From sequence record OQ108497.1: a DNA stretch of 64,000 bases, one strand, 5' to 3'. Shown here piece after piece: positions 33,647 through 48,085 of the stretch. The stretch is from Escherichia phage EC_OE_11. The notes under the pieces were generated by a model. That model was not told the DNA's origin and searched no databases. It saw nothing but the letters and a program-made list of their open reading frames with translations. The position numbers and the translations under genes are program-made. Numbering within the stretch: position 1 is the first letter of the stretch; each line of letters starts with the position of its first letter.

Positions 33647-34819
33647 ATGGTAGCACTAAAATCATGGGAACAATATAAAGAAGAATTAATACCCCTTGCT
33701 AAAAATCACAATATTCAAATCTTGGGTTATGTTGGTGAATGGAAAGGGAACAAGACTAAACTTAAGCTATCTTGCCCTAAACATGGAGAGTGGAACACCA
33801 CGAACATTAATGATTTTAAGAAGGGACGTGGTTGTCCTATCTGTTCTGGTAAGAAGCCGTTAACATGGGAAACAGAATTGCCGATCTTGGAAGAGATAGC
33901 ACAGAAGAGGGGGTATCAGGTGTTAGGGTACGTGGGAGAATGGAAAGGGAATAAAACAAAACTTGATTTGTTGTGTCATTGTGGTAATAAATGGGATACT
34001 ACAAGTATTAACAATTTTAAACGTGGTAGCGGTTGTCCACAATGTAAGAGGGAGAGACAAACAATGTCCGACGATCAACATATTGCAGATTTCTTTTCTA
34101 CAGGGGAATTTAAGGAAGGCACTATCTTCACCAATACAGGGAAACGTAACAAGCGTGATGCAGTATGGATGGTTGAGTGTCCTGTTTGCTCCCATGATGA
34201 ATATGTTCAAGCAGGTGTTTGTGATGGTAAATTTTACTCTGCAGGACATAACCTTAAACAAGGGTATATTCCGTGTCGTTGTGGGAACTATCAGTATACA
34301 GAAGACCAGATCACCTATAGGGTAAAAAAGGAAGTAGAAGGGAAAGGGTATGTCTGGGTAGATTGGATTACCAAACCCTCTTCTATAGGTAAGTTTAAAT
34401 ATCTTTGTCTTGTGCATGGTGAGCAGATAGGGAGTGCTCGTAATTTATTAAGCCTCGGTCAAGGTTGTCCACAGTGTGCTGGTCATAATCAACAGCAATT
34501 ATATATTAATATTGTTAAAGATAATGATATTATAGTTGCTCTTAAGTTTGGCATAGCTAAAGATAGTGACAGGCGATTAAACAATCAAAATAGGCGTAAT
34601 ATGTTTTTTATGGAGCGTATTTGTTTATATGATTTTAGTACAGTGAAACAGTGTAAGGCTGCTGAAAGAGCTATAAAGAAAAAACTAAAAACTGGTATTT
34701 TAACAGCAAGAGAGTTGAAAGATGGTTATACAGAAACAGTAAGTGTTTCTGATTTGGAAAATCTTCAAAAAATTATTACACAATATGGTGGCAAGTTAGT
34801 ATACAGTAAGGAGGTGTAA
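33647..34819 (+). CDS. zinc-ribbon-repeat protein with C-terminal GIY-YIG-like (T5orf172/MUG113-type) domain
   Basis: Two about 45-aa repeats (GYVGEWKGNKTKL..C..G.W.TT.IN.FK.G.GCP.C) plus more CxxC pairs; C-terminal LYINIV...KFGIAKDSDRRL...AERAIKKKL. Confidence 0.45.
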   Translation: MVALKSWEQYKEELIPLAKNHNIQILGYVGEWKGNKTKLKLSCPKHGEWNTTNINDFKKGRGCPICSGKKPLTWETELPILEEIAQKRGYQVLGYVGEWKGNKTKLDLLCHCGNKWDTTSINNFKRGSGCPQCKRERQTMSDDQHIADFFSTGEFKEGTIFTNTGKRNKRDAVWMVECPVCSHDEYVQAGVCDGKFYSAGHNLKQGYIPCRCGNYQYTEDQITYRVKKEVEGKGYVWVDWITKPSSIGKFKYLCLVHGEQIGSARNLLSLGQGCPQCAGHNQQQLYINIVKDNDIIVALKFGIAKDSDRRLNNQNRRNMFFMERICLYDFSTVKQCKAAERAIKKKLKTGILTARELKDGYTETVSVSDLENLQKIITQYGGKLVYSKEV

Positions 34820-35371
34820 ATGCGGATTACTGATAAGTATGTGTTCTTCTTCTCGGCAAAAGATGAATTTAGCAACTGGTATCTATCATCTTTTATTGAA
34901 CCTTTAGCTCCCAAGTATAATAATTCTATTACAAGTTCTGTTGAATTTACTTGTGTGGAACAATATATGATGTGGAGAAAAGCATGTTTGTTTTATGATT
35001 ACAACATTGCATCTTCTATTTTAACCGGAGATCTAAGATATACAGGAGAAAAAGAACAGGCATATTATAAGCGACTAGGTAGATTAGTTAAAGATTACGA
35101 TGAAGCTACTTGGACTTCTTTACGGGAGAAGATTGTCAAGCGTGGTTTGTATCTTAAATACACACAAAATGAAGATCTCAAAAATAAACTTATAGCTTAC
35201 GCAGATAAGGAGTTTGTAGAGGCAAGTCCTTATGATTCTATTTATGGTATCAAAATGGGGATGTGGGATCGGGACGTGGAAAATAAGGATTGTTGGAAAG
35301 GACAAAATCTTTTAGGAAAATGGCATACAGACCTTGCTGTTTATCTAAAATCACAATCTGATATTTCCTGA
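34820..35371 (+). CDS. NADAR-family protein (YbiA-like)
   Basis: FFFSAKDEFSNW, CVEQYMMWRKA, EASPYDSIYGIK, GQNLLGKW align to YbiA motifs. Confidence 0.7.
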   Translation: MRITDKYVFFFSAKDEFSNWYLSSFIEPLAPKYNNSITSSVEFTCVEQYMMWRKACLFYDYNIASSILTGDLRYTGEKEQAYYKRLGRLVKDYDEATWTSLREKIVKRGLYLKYTQNEDLKNKLIAYADKEFVEASPYDSIYGIKMGMWDRDVENKDCWKGQNLLGKWHTDLAVYLKSQSDIS

Positions 35372-35585
35372 TATTTTGAAAATTTTTACTTTTATAAAAA
35401 GGGGTGTGGGTTTCATGTACGGAAATCCACCCTCTGAATAATATATCCAGAGTAAATATTATTCTGTACTCTGTTAATAAAGTATTTAATTTGTTTGTTG
35501 GACTATGGTATCTGATCTTTAAAAGGCATACTATCTCTTAACTACTATTTATAACAGAACAGTAAAATCATTTTTATAAAAAGGA

Positions 35586-35790
35586 CAAAATTATTTAAAG
35601 TTTTTACAGATTTTTGGATACAAATTTTGAAAATGAAAAGTTCAAGTTTGGTCAAAATTATTTAAAGTTTTTGTACGTATTTCTATCCAGATTTTGAAAA
35701 TGAAAACTTCAATTTTTTAAAAATTCCCCAGTTTATTTAAAGTTTTTTTGCCTTTTTCCGTAGAAAAATCAAAAATGAAAAGTTCAATTT
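35586..35790. repeat. 3 tandem copies of about 67-bp AT-rich unit
   Basis: Each unit has AAAATTATTTAAAGTTTTT and ATTTTGAAAATGAAAAGTTCAA. Confidence 0.7.
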
Positions 35791-35811
35791 CGTGTTTTTA
35801 TAGGTGTGCGT

Positions 35812-35925
35812 ATGATAATCATTCTCATTTGTAAATGAGAATCATTATCATTTAATTATGTAAGTGATAATCATTCTCAGTAAGAGAATGAGAATCATTA
35901 GCAAATGAGAATTTTTCTCATTTAG
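35812..35925. promoter_or_regulatory. cluster of Fur-box-like motifs (GATAATCATTCTCATT / AATGAGAATCATTATC)
   Basis: At least 5 units in both orientations resembling Fur consensus GATAATGATAATCATTATC. Confidence 0.5.
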
Positions 35926-35929
35926 AGAA

Positions 35930-36480
35930 TAACGCGCAGGGGTGGTGTTTGTCTCGCGCTCCCGTGTCCCTCGCCATACAATAAGAATAGCATAACCAAC
36001 AACAAAAGCAAGCGATTATTTTTATCTTTACATTTCTTTACAAATTTATTTTAGACGAGCTACCGGCGATCAACCTTCCAACCAGTGCCCCTGGTATGTT
36101 AGCCCCGCCTTTACGCCGTGGGGGTGGCGCTTCCTCTTCTGTATGTAAAACAGTATAAGCCCGATCCCTGGGCTTGTCAAGATTATTTTTTGTTTTCTTG
36201 CCAGGAAAGGACACCTAACCAAAAATACATATCGCCCCGCGCCCCTGGCGGGATCTTGCTTTCCCCGCCGCCACTGCAAGCCCATAAATAACCATCAGCG
36301 AACGGATCAAAATGTTCTATCTCTTCCACCTTATGATCGCCCAGGTTGAGAACGGTTTCAACCTTTAAGCCCGTTGCGCTTGCTACCTGGTGCACCGTGC
36401 CGCCTTGCCAGCCCAATGAGTGCATGAGATGTAAAGGAGTATTTGTCATGGTATCGCCCTTTCTTTGATGTGCGCCCTGG
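35930..36480. other. GC-rich compositional island inside AT-rich non-coding hub
   Basis: Visibly GC-rich versus flanks; only weak ORFs. Confidence 0.5.
36183..36449 (-). CDS. hypothetical protein (88 aa) within GC-rich island; possibly acquired
   Basis: ATG 36449 with AAAGGGCG SD-like; atypical codon composition. Confidence 0.3.
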   Translation of the reverse strand: MTNTPLHLMHSLGWQGGTVHQVASATGLKVETVLNLGDHKVEEIEHFDPFADGYLWACSGGGESKIPPGARGDMYFWLGVLSWQENKK

Positions 36481-36714
36481 TTGGCGCGGTAGAAAGATAA
36501 TAGCCGTTTCCTTTATAGATAGCAAGCAAAAAGAAATGAAAAAAAGATTAAAAAATGGTTGACGTTCCTCACCTGGTAGCGTAGTATTCATCTTGTCGAG
36601 GGGGGCAAGGCACAACGACAATAAACAATAGGCGGGTGCAATGCAGGACGGGCAAAGGTGAGGATCTCCACAATCCACCGTCACAATAACATTACTTATA
36701 AAAGGTTGATAACG

Positions 36715-36810
36715 ATGATCAAGAAAGAAAACAGCTTGACGGTTGGAACGATTAACGCTATCATTCTAGCCGTTCCATTTTGGATTGTAGTAGCGGTTGT
36801 TATTTTCTAA
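36715..36810 (+). CDS. small membrane peptide (31 aa), speculative
   Basis: ATG 36715; single hydrophobic helix; weak SD. Confidence 0.25.
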   Translation: MIKKENSLTVGTINAIILAVPFWIVVAVVIF

Positions 36811-36819
36811 AAAATATTC

Positions 36820-36878
36820 TTGACAACGTTTTTTAATCTGATAAGATGTATCACATAGGGCGGCAATAGTGCCGCTCA
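36820..36878 (+). promoter_or_regulatory. promoter + 5'-leader stem-loop cassette (PeSL-like, type B)
   Basis: TTGACA-16nt-TAAGAT then GCGGC-aatagt-GCCGC hairpin, SD, ATG 36900. Confidence 0.55.
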
Positions 36879-36899
36879 TAACAGAAGAGAGAAATAATC

Positions 36900-37172
36900 A
36901 TGGCATCATATAGCGCATCAATGATCGTAACGGGCATGACTGGTAAACCTATGCGCGGTGGCGGATCTTTCGCTAACATCAATATTGATGGGCGTTTATC
37001 CCTGGATGCAGCGATCACCGTGGCACGGGAAACATTTAAAAAAGAATGTAATTTCAATAAACAAGATTATCTCGGCTTCGTTATTGAAAAAACCGCGCGC
37101 TTTGTTGATTATAAAAGCCCGAAAATGATCGACACTACACTAAAAGCGCAAGATGTAGCATTTTTGCTTTAA
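36900..37172 (+). CDS. hypothetical protein
   Basis: 90 aa. Confidence 0.55.
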   Translation: MASYSASMIVTGMTGKPMRGGGSFANINIDGRLSLDAAITVARETFKKECNFNKQDYLGFVIEKTARFVDYKSPKMIDTTLKAQDVAFLL

Positions 37173-37175
37173 GGC

Positions 37176-37235
37176 TTGACACTGAAAAATAATTTAGTAA
37201 TATATACCACATAGGGCGGGAAATGGTTTCCCGCC
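37176..37235 (+). promoter_or_regulatory. promoter + stem-loop cassette (type A: GGGCGGGaaatggtttCCCGCC)
   Basis: TTGACA-16nt-TAATAT then 22-nt hairpin. Confidence 0.6.
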
Positions 37236-37847: not shown

Positions 37848-38108
37848 TTGTTTTTTCTAAAAGTTTGTGATAATGTGATCGCTTTTGAACATGCTACAAC
37901 GTTCGACCTGGCGAGATACGCTATCAGGTTTAAAGATAATGTTTATCCCCGTGCTGGCGGCGGTTACACTATTTTTAATCACCGTAACGCTCAATTAACG
38001 GATATAACTAATCCAGATCCTGGAGTGTATCGCATAGGCTGGCTACCGTCAAAAGACGCTGCAAGCATGTTTAAGGTGTGCAAACTACTAACAGAAGAGG
38101 CGAACTAA
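37848..38108 (+). CDS. hypothetical protein (TTG start as in ORF track; GTG at 37875 alternative)
   Basis: GGAGG SD 7 nt upstream of TTG. Confidence 0.45.
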   Translation: MFFLKVCDNVIAFEHATTFDLARYAIRFKDNVYPRAGGGYTIFNHRNAQLTDITNPDPGVYRIGWLPSKDAASMFKVCKLLTEEAN

Positions 38109-38109
38109 C

Positions 38110-38664
38110 ATGGGGCGTGAATATGTGATCCAGTCCTGGGTAAAGCATGATGCTAATGATCCGCGCATAATACCAGATGACATGATCGATCACATGGTAG
38201 GGTATAGCGGGGAGCAGATAGGAAATCGAGCGGCAAAGAGCAACGGCAACACCAGGACGCGATCCGTTCGCCCTGGATGGCTGGCGAATGGTAACGCTGA
38301 CATTGCAAGCGCCGCAGATCCAAGCGATGACGCTAAAAATAATCCCTTATACAGCATTGATCCGGCTTTTAAGGTGTTAGAAGAGTATCCCGCTAAATTA
38401 GCCGCACTAGATAAGGCATACGAAGAAAAGCGCATGGCATGGACTGTATACAACACCGCTAAAATGGTGCTAGATGCAAAATTGATTAAAGCCCAGGAGA
38501 AGATCAATAAACTTGTTACCATAGCGCAAGAGGAAGACCAGGACTACCAGGAGGAAGCGGAAGAAATCATGCCTACTCTGGAAGAGGAAGAGATCCAGCC
38601 ATACATGCCGACGGAAGAGGAAAAAAGACAAGCCCTAAAAAATTATGAAAATTGCATTGTGTAA
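38110..38664 (+). CDS. hypothetical protein with acidic C-terminal tail
   Basis: 184 aa, coupled. Confidence 0.55.
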   Translation: MGREYVIQSWVKHDANDPRIIPDDMIDHMVGYSGEQIGNRAAKSNGNTRTRSVRPGWLANGNADIASAADPSDDAKNNPLYSIDPAFKVLEEYPAKLAALDKAYEEKRMAWTVYNTAKMVLDAKLIKAQEKINKLVTIAQEEDQDYQEEAEEIMPTLEEEEIQPYMPTEEEKRQALKNYENCIV

Positions 38665-45924: not shown

Positions 45925-46308
45925 ATGAGCAATATCATCAACCTGGCAGCGACTGTAAACGGTAAAGACTTTAACGGCGCTGTAGACCGTGATCCTATGT
46001 GGTGCTTGTCAGTGTTTAAAGGCGATCTGGTTGAAGTTAGAACAACCGAAGGTTATAGCGACGATTATAAATGCGAGATCCATTTACATAACTGGTACAC
46101 GGGGAAAACTTATGCGCTGAATCACGCGTTTATCGGGAAAATTGAATATCGCGAGATGATCGACGAAGAAACGGGGCAAGATTTTAGCGATTATGTTTAT
46201 ATCCGTTCAGAAACATTAGCCGAACGTTTGATCGAGAAAATGAAAGCAAAAAATAAAATTAATTTATCTCATTGGATTGATATAACAAACGATCCTGCTT
46301 ATCAGTAA
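45925..46308 (+). CDS. hypothetical protein (127 aa)
   Basis: Start moved to ATG 45925. Confidence 0.5.
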   Translation: MSNIINLAATVNGKDFNGAVDRDPMWCLSVFKGDLVEVRTTEGYSDDYKCEIHLHNWYTGKTYALNHAFIGKIEYREMIDEETGQDFSDYVYIRSETLAERLIEKMKAKNKINLSHWIDITNDPAYQ

Positions 46309-46332
46309 ATAACATTTCATACCAGGGCGCAC

Positions 46333-46360
46333 AAAGCGCCCTTTCTTTTTACCTAAATAA
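46333..46360 (+). terminator. intrinsic terminator
   Basis: GGGCGC-acaaa-GCGCCC + TTTCTTTT. Confidence 0.75.
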
Positions 46361-46554
46361 AGATGATAGCTTTTACCTATCAAAAACGTTCACCGAAAAA
46401 AGTGAATAGATCGCGGTATCGAGCTAATCAAGGAGCAGATGAACAACCATACCATGAAGATCATAAGGCGCTTACAACGTGTTTTAGACCGCTTATTTTT
46501 AATTTCTCAATGTAACTATCGGGCAAAAACAGCCTTTTTCTTGTCTTTCCTCTT

Positions 46555-46572
46555 AAATGATAATCATTCTTA
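46555..46572. promoter_or_regulatory. Fur-box-like motif AAATGATAATCATTCTTA
   Basis: Matches GATAATGATAATCATTATC-type consensus. Confidence 0.45.
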
Positions 46573-46610
46573 TTTATAGCTGATTATTTATGCAATAAAC
46601 TGCATAATGC

Positions 46611-46630
46611 AATAATGATAATCATTCTTA
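46611..46630. promoter_or_regulatory. Fur-box-like motif AATAATGATAATCATTCTTA
   Basis: Second copy about 55 bp downstream. Confidence 0.45.
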
Positions 46631-46924
46631 ACTTATGACCATCTAACCTATAAAATAATAAGTTATCTAACTAAATTAAAGCTAACTATTTCACCTTTAT
46701 TTATAACTTACTGTTACTATCTCATTGATAACCTTATATTAAACAACAATAACTAATATAAATCATTACTAAGCTAAATATAATCTATCTAACCTTTAAA
46801 ACTATAACTATAATCTATCGAATTGTTGCACAAAGTAACTATTAAATTGTTAGTAACATTACTAAATAATTCACATCCTATCTATTTATGATCTAATCTT
46901 TACCTTCCTATCTATTACCTAAGT

Positions 46925-46956
46925 AATCATTTCATACAGCAATCATTTCATACAAC
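46925..46956. repeat. tandem direct repeat AATCATTTCATACA(G/A)C x2
   Basis: Two adjacent 16-bp units in ORF-free AT-rich region. Confidence 0.6.
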
Positions 46957-47019
46957 AACTATAACAAGAAATATAATTAGCAAGCGTATCATTAGCAGCC
47001 TATGCCGGACACATAGGCG

Positions 47020-47165
47020 GCTAATAATAACGCAACTACACACCCCACATAATAACCATCACCGATAGTTATTATCTGTGCTTATGTAGCTTGCAACAAT
47101 TGCAAGCGCAACAATATACATGGTATATTGTATCCCTTACATTGTTGCGGTGCGTTATTATTAGC
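47020..47165. repeat. large dyad-symmetry element: 14-bp inverted repeats flanking about 120 bp with internal hairpins
   Basis: GCTAATAATAACGC at 47020-47033 vs exact reverse complement at 47152-47165; internal CGCAACAAT...ATTGTTGCG hairpin. Confidence 0.6.
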
Positions 47166-47511
47166 TAATGTTTGGAACATTGGCTATAATATAAGCTACA
47201 TATAATAAGCTATTCAATAATAAACATCGTGAATAATGACATTGAAATGAATAATGACACTGATGATCATAATGCGCCACCTTCCAGGGGGCGCTATGTG
47301 AACACAAAGAAATCTTTCTTGTCAAGAAAAATATCACCATTATTGCGCAAAATTATTTATATCTGAATAGATGATTTTTCATACTATTGCCCCTATACAC
47401 TACCTCATTTGTTGCAATGTATCCCCCTATTTGTTGAGCCTATTCTCTTAAAAGCGCAATAAATCAGAATTATCTTGATTTTTAGTGGATTTTATAGTAT
47501 AGAAAATATGC

Positions 47512-47529
47512 AAATGATAATCATTATCA
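47512..47529. promoter_or_regulatory. Fur-box-like motif AAATGATAATCATTATCA
   Basis: Near-consensus Fur-box-like palindrome. Confidence 0.45.
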
Positions 47530-47694
47530 GCTATCTTCCACGGGTGGCACTATTTCACGCCAGATCATTTCATTTGGCAAGGTGTATATAGATGTTTAGA
47601 AATGCCAAGCCATTGATTTACTTAGAATTTATCTGTTTTGTTGTGAGTAGTGCCTTTCTTGCTCAGAAAATAATCAAAAGTCTTATAAGTCATT

Positions 47695-47730
47695 GAATGA
47701 TAATGCAAATGATAATAATTCTCATTGATA
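47695..47730. promoter_or_regulatory. tandem Fur-box-like motifs
   Basis: GAATGATAATGCAAATGATAATAATTCTCATTGA. Confidence 0.45.
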
Positions 47731-47846
47731 TTTGAGGGGGACGGTCGGCAGAAATCGGGGGGCGCTGAAAATCGCGTTAAGCACCTCTCGCAAGCGAGCA
47801 GTATTTTGCGGCAAGTTATTGATATTATTGGCTTTACGCTTATGGA

Positions 47847-47954
47847 AAGGGGGTGTGTCGAAATAAATCGGGTATACCGGAAAATTTTTGTGGCATAGAT
47901 ATTTATTTGTCTATATTATGTACAAAGGGGTGTGTTAAAAATATTAGGTATATA
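47847..47954 (+). repeat. two copies of about 30-bp direct repeat (AAAGGGGTGTGT..AAATA..GGTATA), possible promoter elements
   Basis: 47847-47876 and 47924-47954, about 75 bp apart, upstream of first gene of 48-60 kb cluster. Confidence 0.5.
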
Positions 47955-48085
47955 TAGAATAATTGATAGGGAAATCCTATACTAATTCCTCTATTAATGA
48001 TGCTTCTAGGTTGCTGTTCTTGTAATAGATGAAAAGACGCTATATGATGTGTGGCATGAAACGTAAATTTATAAAGGAGTCTGAT

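Follow-up and report, generated by a model that had tools for sequence, protein, structure and literature searches.

A GC-rich leftward unit of Escherichia phage EC_OE_11 carries a small conserved gene and a predicted noncoding RNA shared by two myovirus subfamilies

Results

A leftward unit between rightward genes

Escherichia phage EC_OE_11 is a phi92-like myovirus (Justusliebigvirus, Stephanstirmvirinae). We analyzed a 64,000-nucleotide stretch of its DNA from record OQ108497.1 (the window; all positions refer to it), concentrating on the interval 35930–36480, which a sequence-only reading had flagged as about 550 bp visibly richer in GC than the rest. The genes that flank this island on both sides lie on the plus strand, and the island is the sole leftward unit between them. 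It holds a small gene for a protein of 88 amino acids (aa) and, to the left of that gene, a promoter, P1, followed by a block of about 100 nucleotides (nt) that we propose is transcribed into a stand-alone noncoding RNA, RNA1. We regard this anatomy, a leftward early unit with a stand-alone RNA, as reasonably likely. The features of P1 and the predicted RNA are:

36152–36180, minus strand: near-consensus sigma-70-type promoter P1 (TTGACA-17-TATACT), preceded by an A/T-rich element; 11/12, the best site of the region
36050–36146, minus strand: predicted conserved noncoding RNA, RNA1; purine-rich leader in its 5′ part, 3′ limit at about 36050
36129–36126 with 36117–36114, minus strand: RNA1 stem A, 4 bp
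36122–36119 with 36106–36103, minus strand: RNA1 pseudoknot, 4 bp, joining the stem A loop to a downstream G-run
36098–36079, minus strand: RNA1 hairpin C, 6–9 bp, with a variable tip
36077–36060, minus strand: near-invariant RNA1 tail AAGGUnnAUCGCCGGUAG, 18 nt, the most conserved stretch of the whole locus

P1 is of the same type as the promoters of the plus-strand early array to its right, and its upstream element and −35 hexamer are 94% identical to those of the plus-strand early promoter at 36809–36826 (repeat I4). Of 34 non-redundant copies of the locus, 29 have an equivalent at this position that scores at least 9/12, although the spacer has wholly diverged. The conservation of P1 therefore fixes the transcribed strand as the minus strand, with a start at about 36146–36144.

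Conservation of the noncoding block

Segment 36025–36149, extending in some phages to 35926–36146, is 72–86% identical at the DNA level in distant phages whose flanking sequences are not conserved; these phages infect Klebsiella, Proteus, Cronobacter, Pectobacterium, Salmonella, Enterobacter, and Acinetobacter. The open reading frame (ORF) for the 88-aa protein is undetected in them at the DNA level, usually nothing is annotated over the RNA, and the noncoding block is conserved in a wider range of phages than the neighboring gene. Within the tail, ATCGCCGGTAG is invariant as DNA. The core, of about 100 nt, includes an internal variable segment with insertions and deletions of 1 and 5–9 nt, lengths that are not multiples of three and therefore exclude a reading frame. 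A hidden micro-ORF was rejected on the same grounds, there being no conserved start codon and no frame that these length changes leave intact.

A covariance model built for the element found a single copy in the window, at 110 bits, and 46 copies in viral loci. Our first pattern for searching viral sequences was too loose and returned mostly chance contigs, and a tighter pattern was used in its place. Metagenomes yielded 23 further strong copies, mostly on phage-sized contigs of ~115–150 kb and some on shorter ones. One Pectobacterium phage, P7_Pc, carries two tandem RNA units (1297–1395 and 1483–1588 of the extracted locus, L015), each with its own promoter. The second P7_Pc copy is of a divergent type (47 bits), and the P7_Pc record places a 24-aa coding sequence (CDS; orf146, a 75-nt feature) over the first. 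Some other records likewise place spurious small CDSs over RNA1, none annotates an RNA there, and we found it neither annotated in any record nor mentioned in any paper. The record of Salmonella phage vB_Sen_SG_WM_RUS_R7 (L012, 1–310) is classed in Demerecviridae and has the element at its very start, with an 'attL' repeat feature and small CDSs drawn over the RNA; its annotation and taxonomy look doubtful.

The element resembles no catalogued RNA. The Rfam scan that the sequence-only reading had proposed gave no family match on the island: Rfam 15 at gathering thresholds had 0 matches in the whole window, and at E-values up to 10 across 35350–36900 nothing fell on 35930–36180, all matches lying far below threshold. 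Apparent microRNA, PrrF, and SpR14 hits from that search were rejected as AT-rich palindromes. ARAGORN found 0 tRNA or tmRNA genes in the window. Nor does RNA1 look like an Hfq-type small RNA, as its core has no 3′ hairpin with a U-tract and runs instead into an AU-rich segment and then into a second promoter, P2. We think RNA1 best filed as a new family of phage noncoding RNA.

Covariation in the predicted helices

The structure, consisting of stem A, the pseudoknot, and hairpin C, was proposed from divergent copies and then tested on alignments. In a MAFFT alignment of 34 copies, 89.0% of the cells were paired, compared to 21–44% when the partners were slid by 1–3 columns; across both alignments used, this control ranged from 21 to 47%. 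Ten of the 17 pairs change on both sides in the MAFFT alignment, a number reached by 0–1 of 500 shuffles. For four of the five measures none of the 500 shuffles attained the observed value, and for the fifth three did, with the caution that the aligned sequences are related, so that these counts are not probabilities.

An alignment of 39 distinct copies to the covariance model gave compensated changes at all six of the modeled hairpin C pairs. This hairpin occurs in at least eight sequence versions (for example, CAUAGC-GAAA-GCAUG and GAUACUU-GCAA-AAGAUC), and stem A is nearly invariant. The pseudoknot was left out of the covariance model, so that exchanges of its pairs in this alignment are unbiased: at one pair 27 copies have C-G and 7 have A-U, and the next pair occurs as A-U, C-G, G-C, and U-A. 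Covariation thus supports hairpin C and moderately supports the pseudoknot. Structured RNA had been one of two explanations offered for the island at the outset, and it is supported for 36146–36050 of the minus strand, where a promoter, noncoding sequence, and covarying helices coincide; this stretch matches no Rfam family and is not unusually stable thermodynamically.

The small gene upstream of P1

Four further features, all on the minus strand, make up the small gene and its surroundings:

36497–36525, minus strand: candidate promoter P0 of the small gene (TTGCTA-17-TATTAT), 9/12 in the promoter scan, scored in the window
36472–36487, minus strand: putative GC hairpin (GCGCC-AACCAG-GGCGC) in the 5′ leader of the small gene, read from the sequence
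36183–36449, minus strand: 88-aa gene of the Phi92_gp224/bas60_0113 family (PHROG 19316), encoding an orphan protein with five predicted helices
36157–36175, minus strand: GC-rich hairpin (AAGCCC-AGGGATC-GGGCTT) directly after the gene's stop codon, within the P1 spacer

The 88-aa ORF had been noticed before, with a Shine-Dalgarno-like site, and its coordinates proved exact; AAAGAAAGGG lies 8–9 nt before the ATG. Relatives annotate it as a hypothetical protein (Phi92_gp224, bas60_0113). Its homologs form 21 clusters of proteins about 88 aa long, the most divergent of which align with the window protein at ~40% identity; 17 residues are invariant in the family, mostly in the N-terminal half, and pairwise dN/dS ratios of the gene are 0.14–0.27. 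These comparisons indicate that the ORF is a real conserved gene under purifying selection. The description of the island as containing only weak minus-strand ORFs is too negative for this ORF; the other small ORFs of the island overlap the noncoding RNA and have no Pfam or PHROG match.

An AlphaFold model computed from the family alignment has five helices, a predicted local distance difference test score (pLDDT) of 94.5, and a predicted template modeling score (pTM) of 0.87. No fold or family match with an assignable function was found for the protein. A helix-turn-helix reading was dropped, as it had sub-threshold sequence hints only and no support from the fold. An exhaustive profile search with the family returned 208 representatives, mostly small proteins among those listed; the three large multi-repeat matches that were scanned were discarded as leucine-rich-repeat false positives, and the remaining proteins scanned from the profile matches had no significant Pfam domain.

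P0 is divergent from a plus-strand early promoter at 36559–36587, and the leader hairpin at 36472–36487 is analogous to the 5′ stem-loops that follow plus-strand early promoters. A scan listed the hairpin at 36157–36175 as terminator-like on the minus strand, and it is probably the 3′ hairpin or terminator of the small gene. Because the sequence that follows the stop codon is also the P1 spacer, the 3′ hairpin of the gene would be nested inside the promoter of the RNA. In other phages the sequence of the P1 spacer differs and still forms a GC hairpin, often with a GNRA loop.

The slot upstream of P1 is occupied by the gp224 family in phi92-like phages, Av-05, FBKp34, phiTE, and others, by an unrelated family of 58–63 aa in the Mydo, BIS47, GAP31, and SalR7 lineages, and by still other ORFs in KP2025, ABPH49, and L114. 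Every ORF in the slot ends 35–56 nt ahead of the RNA core. The gene slot alone varies, and does so between distant lineages only. Across these genomes, then, the RNA is the constant element and the upstream gene the variable one.

Repeats, a second promoter, and Fur-box-like arrays downstream of RNA1

Farther leftward, the transcript from P1 would run into an AT-rich segment and a second GC-rich block, and beyond these lies an array of palindromes:

36027–36041, minus strand: direct repeat GTAAA-N5-GTAAA upstream of P2, a perfect match to the CpxR-box consensus
35984–36011, minus strand: candidate second promoter P2 (TTGCTT-16-TATTCT), 7/12 in the window and below the reporting level of the promoter scan
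35926–35980, minus strand: second GC-rich block, the 5′ part of a predicted 'RNA2', with GAGACAAACACC...CUGC conserved in alignments
35810–35925, no strand assigned: Fur-box-like palindromes at 35814–35826, 35837–35849, 35866–35878, and 35890–35902, and a weaker one near 35908–35920

The published consensus of the CpxR box is GTAAA(N)4-8GTAAA (PMC9603713). Of 32 non-redundant copies, 21 have a perfect repeat at one fixed offset, and the repeat stands 5 nt before the P2 −35 hexamer in most phages and 15 nt from it, 10 bp more, in phi92-like phages. The window as a whole has two such repeats where 0.56 are expected, and 13 of 100 shuffles reach two, so that the number is not beyond chance. We treat the putative CpxR box as a lead. 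In 24 of 32 copies the counterpart of P2 scores at least 9/12, and the P2 transcript would start with ACAT(A/G)GCG, as in other early transcripts of the phage. For the RNA2 block, only a closing helix of 6 bp is predicted, rich in G·U pairs and lacking clean covariation.

Within a 90-bp part of the palindrome array, three sites are one mismatch from GATAATnATTATC and one site has two mismatches. The window contains 22 Fur-type sites compared to 6.9 ± 2.4 expected, a number reached by 0 of 100 shuffles, and across the phages such sites reach a density of 3.0 per kb over the 300 nt that follow the RNA, ~100-fold that of the remaining parts of the loci (0.03 per kb). Some relatives have a perfect 7-1-7 site, TGATAATGATTATCA. 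Fur sites have been described as a 13-bp 6-1-6 unit or a 19-bp consensus and as arrays of three or more hexamers (PMC2189734), and both the motif and its clustering here fit that description. Inside the array we found only palindromic promoter-like matches of 9/12; Mydo- and Seunavirus-like phages have a strong leftward promoter just past the Fur-type boxes. A Fur-controlled promoter reading into the island on the plus strand was rejected, as the would-be −10 hexamer varies at its key second position in the alignment. Our literature searches for Fur sites in virulent phages returned nothing pertinent.

Several related loci depart from this layout. In three IMG/VR contigs (L143, L153, and L114), the palindromes ~100–250 nt past the RNA core are replaced by (A)CTATCAC(G/C)CC(C)GAAAC repeats, the position of the operator-like array being kept and its motif swapped; a phage-encoded binder in place of host Fur is therefore possible. 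Loci L008, L009, L011, and L005 and their relatives have a third leftward promoter (for example, TTGACT-17-GATACT) ~170–230 nt downstream of the RNA core and past the Fur-type sites, followed by a conserved CCC(T)AAAAAATTTTTTCGCG tract, for which the window has no clear equivalent.

Neighboring regions

To the left, the plus strand encodes an ATPase, a protein with four CapR-homology repeats and a T5orf172 domain (ORF 33647–34819), and a NADAR-domain protein (ORF 34820–35371) that relatives annotate as a YbiA-like N-glycosidase. Between the end of the NADAR gene and the Fur-type array, positions 35570–35790 hold three direct repeats of ~70 bp with 71–73% identity and a GC content of 0.19–0.29, where phage PaulScherrer has an annotated 36-aa ORF. 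These repeats could be iterons, promoters, or an unwinding element.

To the right, about 20 strong sigma-70-type promoters, one per small gene, are densely arrayed along the plus strand from 36.7 to 45.9 kb and mark the region by its sequence as an early region dependent on the host polymerase. After most of these promoters the transcribed sequence opens with a conserved stem-loop, CACATAGGGCGG(G/C)AA..CCGCC (for example, at 36848–36880 and 37205–37235). Beyond the array, a second nearly ORF-free AT-rich hub at 46300–48000 (GC 0.25 at 46501–47000) has many short direct repeats and a further four Fur-type sites, one of them a perfect TGATAATCATTATCA at 47515–47529. It is as plausible a regulatory hub or replication origin as the island.

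Composition, distribution, and age of the locus

Sliding-window computation bore out the compositional impression that had drawn attention to the interval. Its GC content is 0.494, compared to 0.374 for the whole window, and it is the top 550-bp segment (z = 4.14; mean 0.375, SD 0.029), well outside the normal variance that would have spoken against an island. The runner-up peak at 38011–38560 (z = 3.7) coincides with a 184-aa early gene (ORF 38110–38664, plus strand) whose third-position GC (GC3) is 0.495, and the early region at 36.0–38.7 kb has generally higher GC than the remaining window. In 100-bp steps, GC is 0.48–0.57 across about 36050–36500, with a small separate patch at 35926–35980. 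The island is a mosaic of unlike segments, not a uniform one:

35926–35980: GC 0.60
35981–36049 (AT-rich promoter segment): GC 0.23
36050–36146: GC 0.58
36147–36182: GC 0.47
36183–36449 (88-aa ORF): GC 0.50

The island-like GC can be traced to two sources: the RNA blocks and hairpins, which would keep GC-rich sequence under functional constraint in a genome of 37% GC, and the atypically GC-rich codons of the 88-aa gene, whose GC3 is 0.52 compared to 0.31 ± 0.06 in 65 other ORFs of the window (z 3.8).

The other explanation offered at the outset was recent horizontal acquisition, that is, capture from the host or from another GC-richer source. Several observations agree with it. A GC of ~0.50 is near that of E. 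coli, the GC3 of the 88-aa gene is an outlier, the unrelated small ORFs that occupy the slot upstream of P1 in different lineages point to exchange of content over long timescales, and Av-05 has the same module at 78% DNA identity. The distribution of the locus argues otherwise. The surrounding 2 kb are 96–98% identical to PaulScherrer (Bas60), alia, phi92, and similar phages, and the whole island is 91–98% identical and syntenic within Justusliebigvirus and Phapecoctavirus. Distant blastn with 35925–36560 matched 236 phage records from two subfamilies, with the arrangement at the same strand-switch, and the locus is syntenic across Stephanstirmvirinae (phi92-like) and Vequintavirinae (rV5-like). 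Five of the records that match the region are labeled as Campylobacter phages (host C. jejuni) and may be mislabeled or contaminated.

No donor turned up. The proposed blastn comparison with host genomes, run with 11-base words and 35925–36560 as query, covered 5,426 complete E. coli genomes and matched none of them. A 16-base core signature had 94 pattern matches in 185,579 bacterial and archaeal genomes, of which the profile confirmed only one, on a 4-kb contig of a metagenome bin; the other 93 are chance matches. All close relatives carry the island in synteny, its RNA block is conserved in two subfamilies and is therefore old in the lineage, not recent, and its GC-rich parts fall on constrained RNA helices and hairpins. 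Acquisition is thus largely refuted as to 'recent' and 'from the host', and we now hold recent capture to be highly improbable. By these comparisons the locus is old and phage-specific. More generally, locally high GC in the genome of an AT-rich phage can be a sign of constrained RNA and not of imported DNA.

Discussion

A proposed early noncoding unit

Read leftward, the unit that we propose would begin with the small gene, with its own candidate promoter and 5′ hairpin, pass through the stop-codon hairpin nested in P1 to RNA1 of ~100 nt, and continue through an AT-rich block with the GTAAA repeats and the weaker P2 to the second GC block and the Fur-type array. Host RNA polymerase would make stand-alone RNA1 from P1 at the onset of infection, the helices of RNA1 would display its unpaired, invariant tail to a partner that is conserved among host genera or among the phages, and host Fur bound downstream could modulate how far leftward transcription reaches. 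Concerning RNA1 itself, we have a moderate preference for such action in trans.

A number of results count against this proposal. The search for a partner of the tail found no complementary site within the fetched phage loci and no significant complementarity in 16S, 23S, or 5S rRNA or in tRNA-Ile, tRNA-Ala, or tRNA-Asp, and pairing of the tail with the 3′ end of 16S rRNA was no better than that of shuffles (p ~0.06 and 0.28). The pseudoknot has only two covarying positions, one copy (L265) keeps just two of its pairs, and RNAalifold favors an alternative long-range helix that never varies. Folding energy is no lower than that of shuffled sequences (z −0.12 for the minus strand and +0.65 for the plus strand). 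Counts of G·U and A·C pairs in the tested helices (3 vs 3 in hairpin C) are uninformative on the strand, which rests on the promoter. The scan found no intrinsic terminator after the RNA1 core, leaving the 3′ end undefined, and RNA1 may belong to a longer transcript. P2, at 7/12 in the window, is weak, and literature searches for transcriptomes or small RNAs of these phages returned nothing pertinent.

The main rival to a trans-acting RNA is a cis-acting replication element, in which P1 and P2 would fire into AT-rich repeats and thereby prime or activate an origin, with the RNA as primer or R-loop former. Two tandem leftward promoters without a conserved downstream ORF would suit such a role, as would the stretch that they face, which has the lowest GC of the region (0.19–0.29), three direct repeats of ~70 bp, and palindrome arrays. 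The minus-strand transcript is G-rich, the GC skew of the plus strand is negative here, many relatives have an A6T6 tract further downstream, and no intrinsic terminator follows RNA1. On the other hand, a primer has no obvious need for an invariant single-stranded segment of 18 nt, a covarying hairpin with a free tip, or a pseudoknot. Cumulative GC skew turns at ~30.3 kb, where the gene strand switches, and not at the island, and the ORF-free AT-rich hub at 46.3–48.0 kb is an equally good origin candidate. Weighing these points, we judge an origin at the island unlikely. The same lack of a terminator, together with the short helices directly downstream of a strong early promoter, could also suggest a cis-acting RNA, either a processive antitermination element like HK022 put or a stabilizing structure in the 3′ or 5′ untranslated region of a longer leftward transcript; protein-bound Fur-type sites would then act as a roadblock, passable to a modified polymerase. 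This interpretation seems distinctly unlikely: nothing conserved lies downstream to be read through into, there is no Rfam similarity even at E-values up to 10 (the presence of a put model in Rfam was not checked), and P7_Pc duplicates the whole unit with its promoter, as fits a gene product better than a leader.

It is also conceivable that the element acts as DNA, as a protein-binding site or cruciform with no function as RNA. The most conserved stretch, ATCGCCGGTAG, is after all invariant as DNA, the helices could form equally well on either strand, and the region is crowded with candidate protein-binding sites. Such an element would not account for a promoter whose distance stays constant in 29 of 34 copies even as the spacer sequence changes, or for the separate promoter of the duplicated P7_Pc copy, and the alteration of hairpin C in at least eight ways with pairing kept is as expected of a transcribed structure. 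We consider a purely DNA-level role very unlikely.

A broader and quite doubtful extension of the proposed unit is that a virulent phage reads the state of its host here, with the Fur arrays (iron) and the CpxR-type box (envelope stress) gating an early noncoding unit. If this were true, a pseudoknotted RNA would reprogram a universally conserved host component or fire a phage replication origin, whether infection goes ahead would depend on iron and envelope status, and the hub at 46.3–48.0 kb, with Fur-type sites of its own, would belong to the same circuit. The phi92-like and rV5-like myoviruses are among the coliphages with the broadest host ranges and are common in phage-therapy collections, and nearly everything annotated in their early regions is called a hypothetical protein. 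For these regions, the element spans two subfamilies, with phage hosts that include Escherichia, Klebsiella, Salmonella, Cronobacter, Pectobacterium, Proteus, Serratia, and others, and it offers a candidate RNA with a testable structure and a discrete invariant motif to mutate, as well as the concrete hypothesis of host Fur acting on a virulent phage genome.

Comparison with known systems

Like the Fur-box arrays of E. coli, which are built of GATAAT hexamers (PMC2189734), the phage array has several overlapping or adjacent sites with 0–1 mismatch to GATAATnATTATC. It differs in lying in a virulent genome without visible overlap with a strong promoter, and in that many phage copies read GAGAAT and not GATAAT. 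The Fur-regulated small RNAs RyhB and PrrF resemble RNA1 in that a small RNA gene stands beside clustered Fur boxes. The Fur-type sites here, however, are downstream of RNA1 and P2 and not over the promoter of RNA1, which also lacks a terminator and U-tail; there is no similarity in sequence or model, the PrrF 'hit' having 17 bits compared to a threshold of 90 and falling on the palindromes.

Promoter-plus-AT-rich replication origins include that of ColE1 with its RNA II, the primary origin of T7 with tandem promoters and an AT-rich stretch, and ori(uvsY) and ori(34) of T4. The locus shares with them strong promoters that read into AT-rich repeats, a G-rich transcript, and the absence of a downstream coding function; it is distinguished by the invariant single-stranded motif and predicted pseudoknot of RNA1, which such primers do not need, and it has no sequence similarity to them. 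The put site of HK022 encodes a small antitermination RNA with two adjacent hairpins directly downstream of early promoters, and RNA1 is likewise a small multi-helix RNA directly after an early promoter. Compared by description, RNA1 has a pseudoknot in place of two adjacent hairpins and no conserved terminator or gene to read through.

The closest setting is that of pseudo-ToxI in Pectobacterium phage phiTE, a short noncoding RNA at 106,714–106,772 between genes 202 and 203 (PMC3475682). Both are short noncoding RNAs, predicted in the case of RNA1, in an intergenic gap of an rV5-like myovirus, and phiTE carries the RNA1 element too. There it lies at ~39.7 kb between genes 078 and 079, a different locus that rules out identity of the two. 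RNA1 also has no tandem 36-nt repeat and no known toxin partner, and its arrangement differs from that of a type III (ToxI-like) antitoxin: each genome has a single copy, except P7_Pc with its two full units, and the neighboring ORFs are small and mutually unrelated. Pseudo-ToxI is found in one phage, whereas RNA1 is conserved across two subfamilies.

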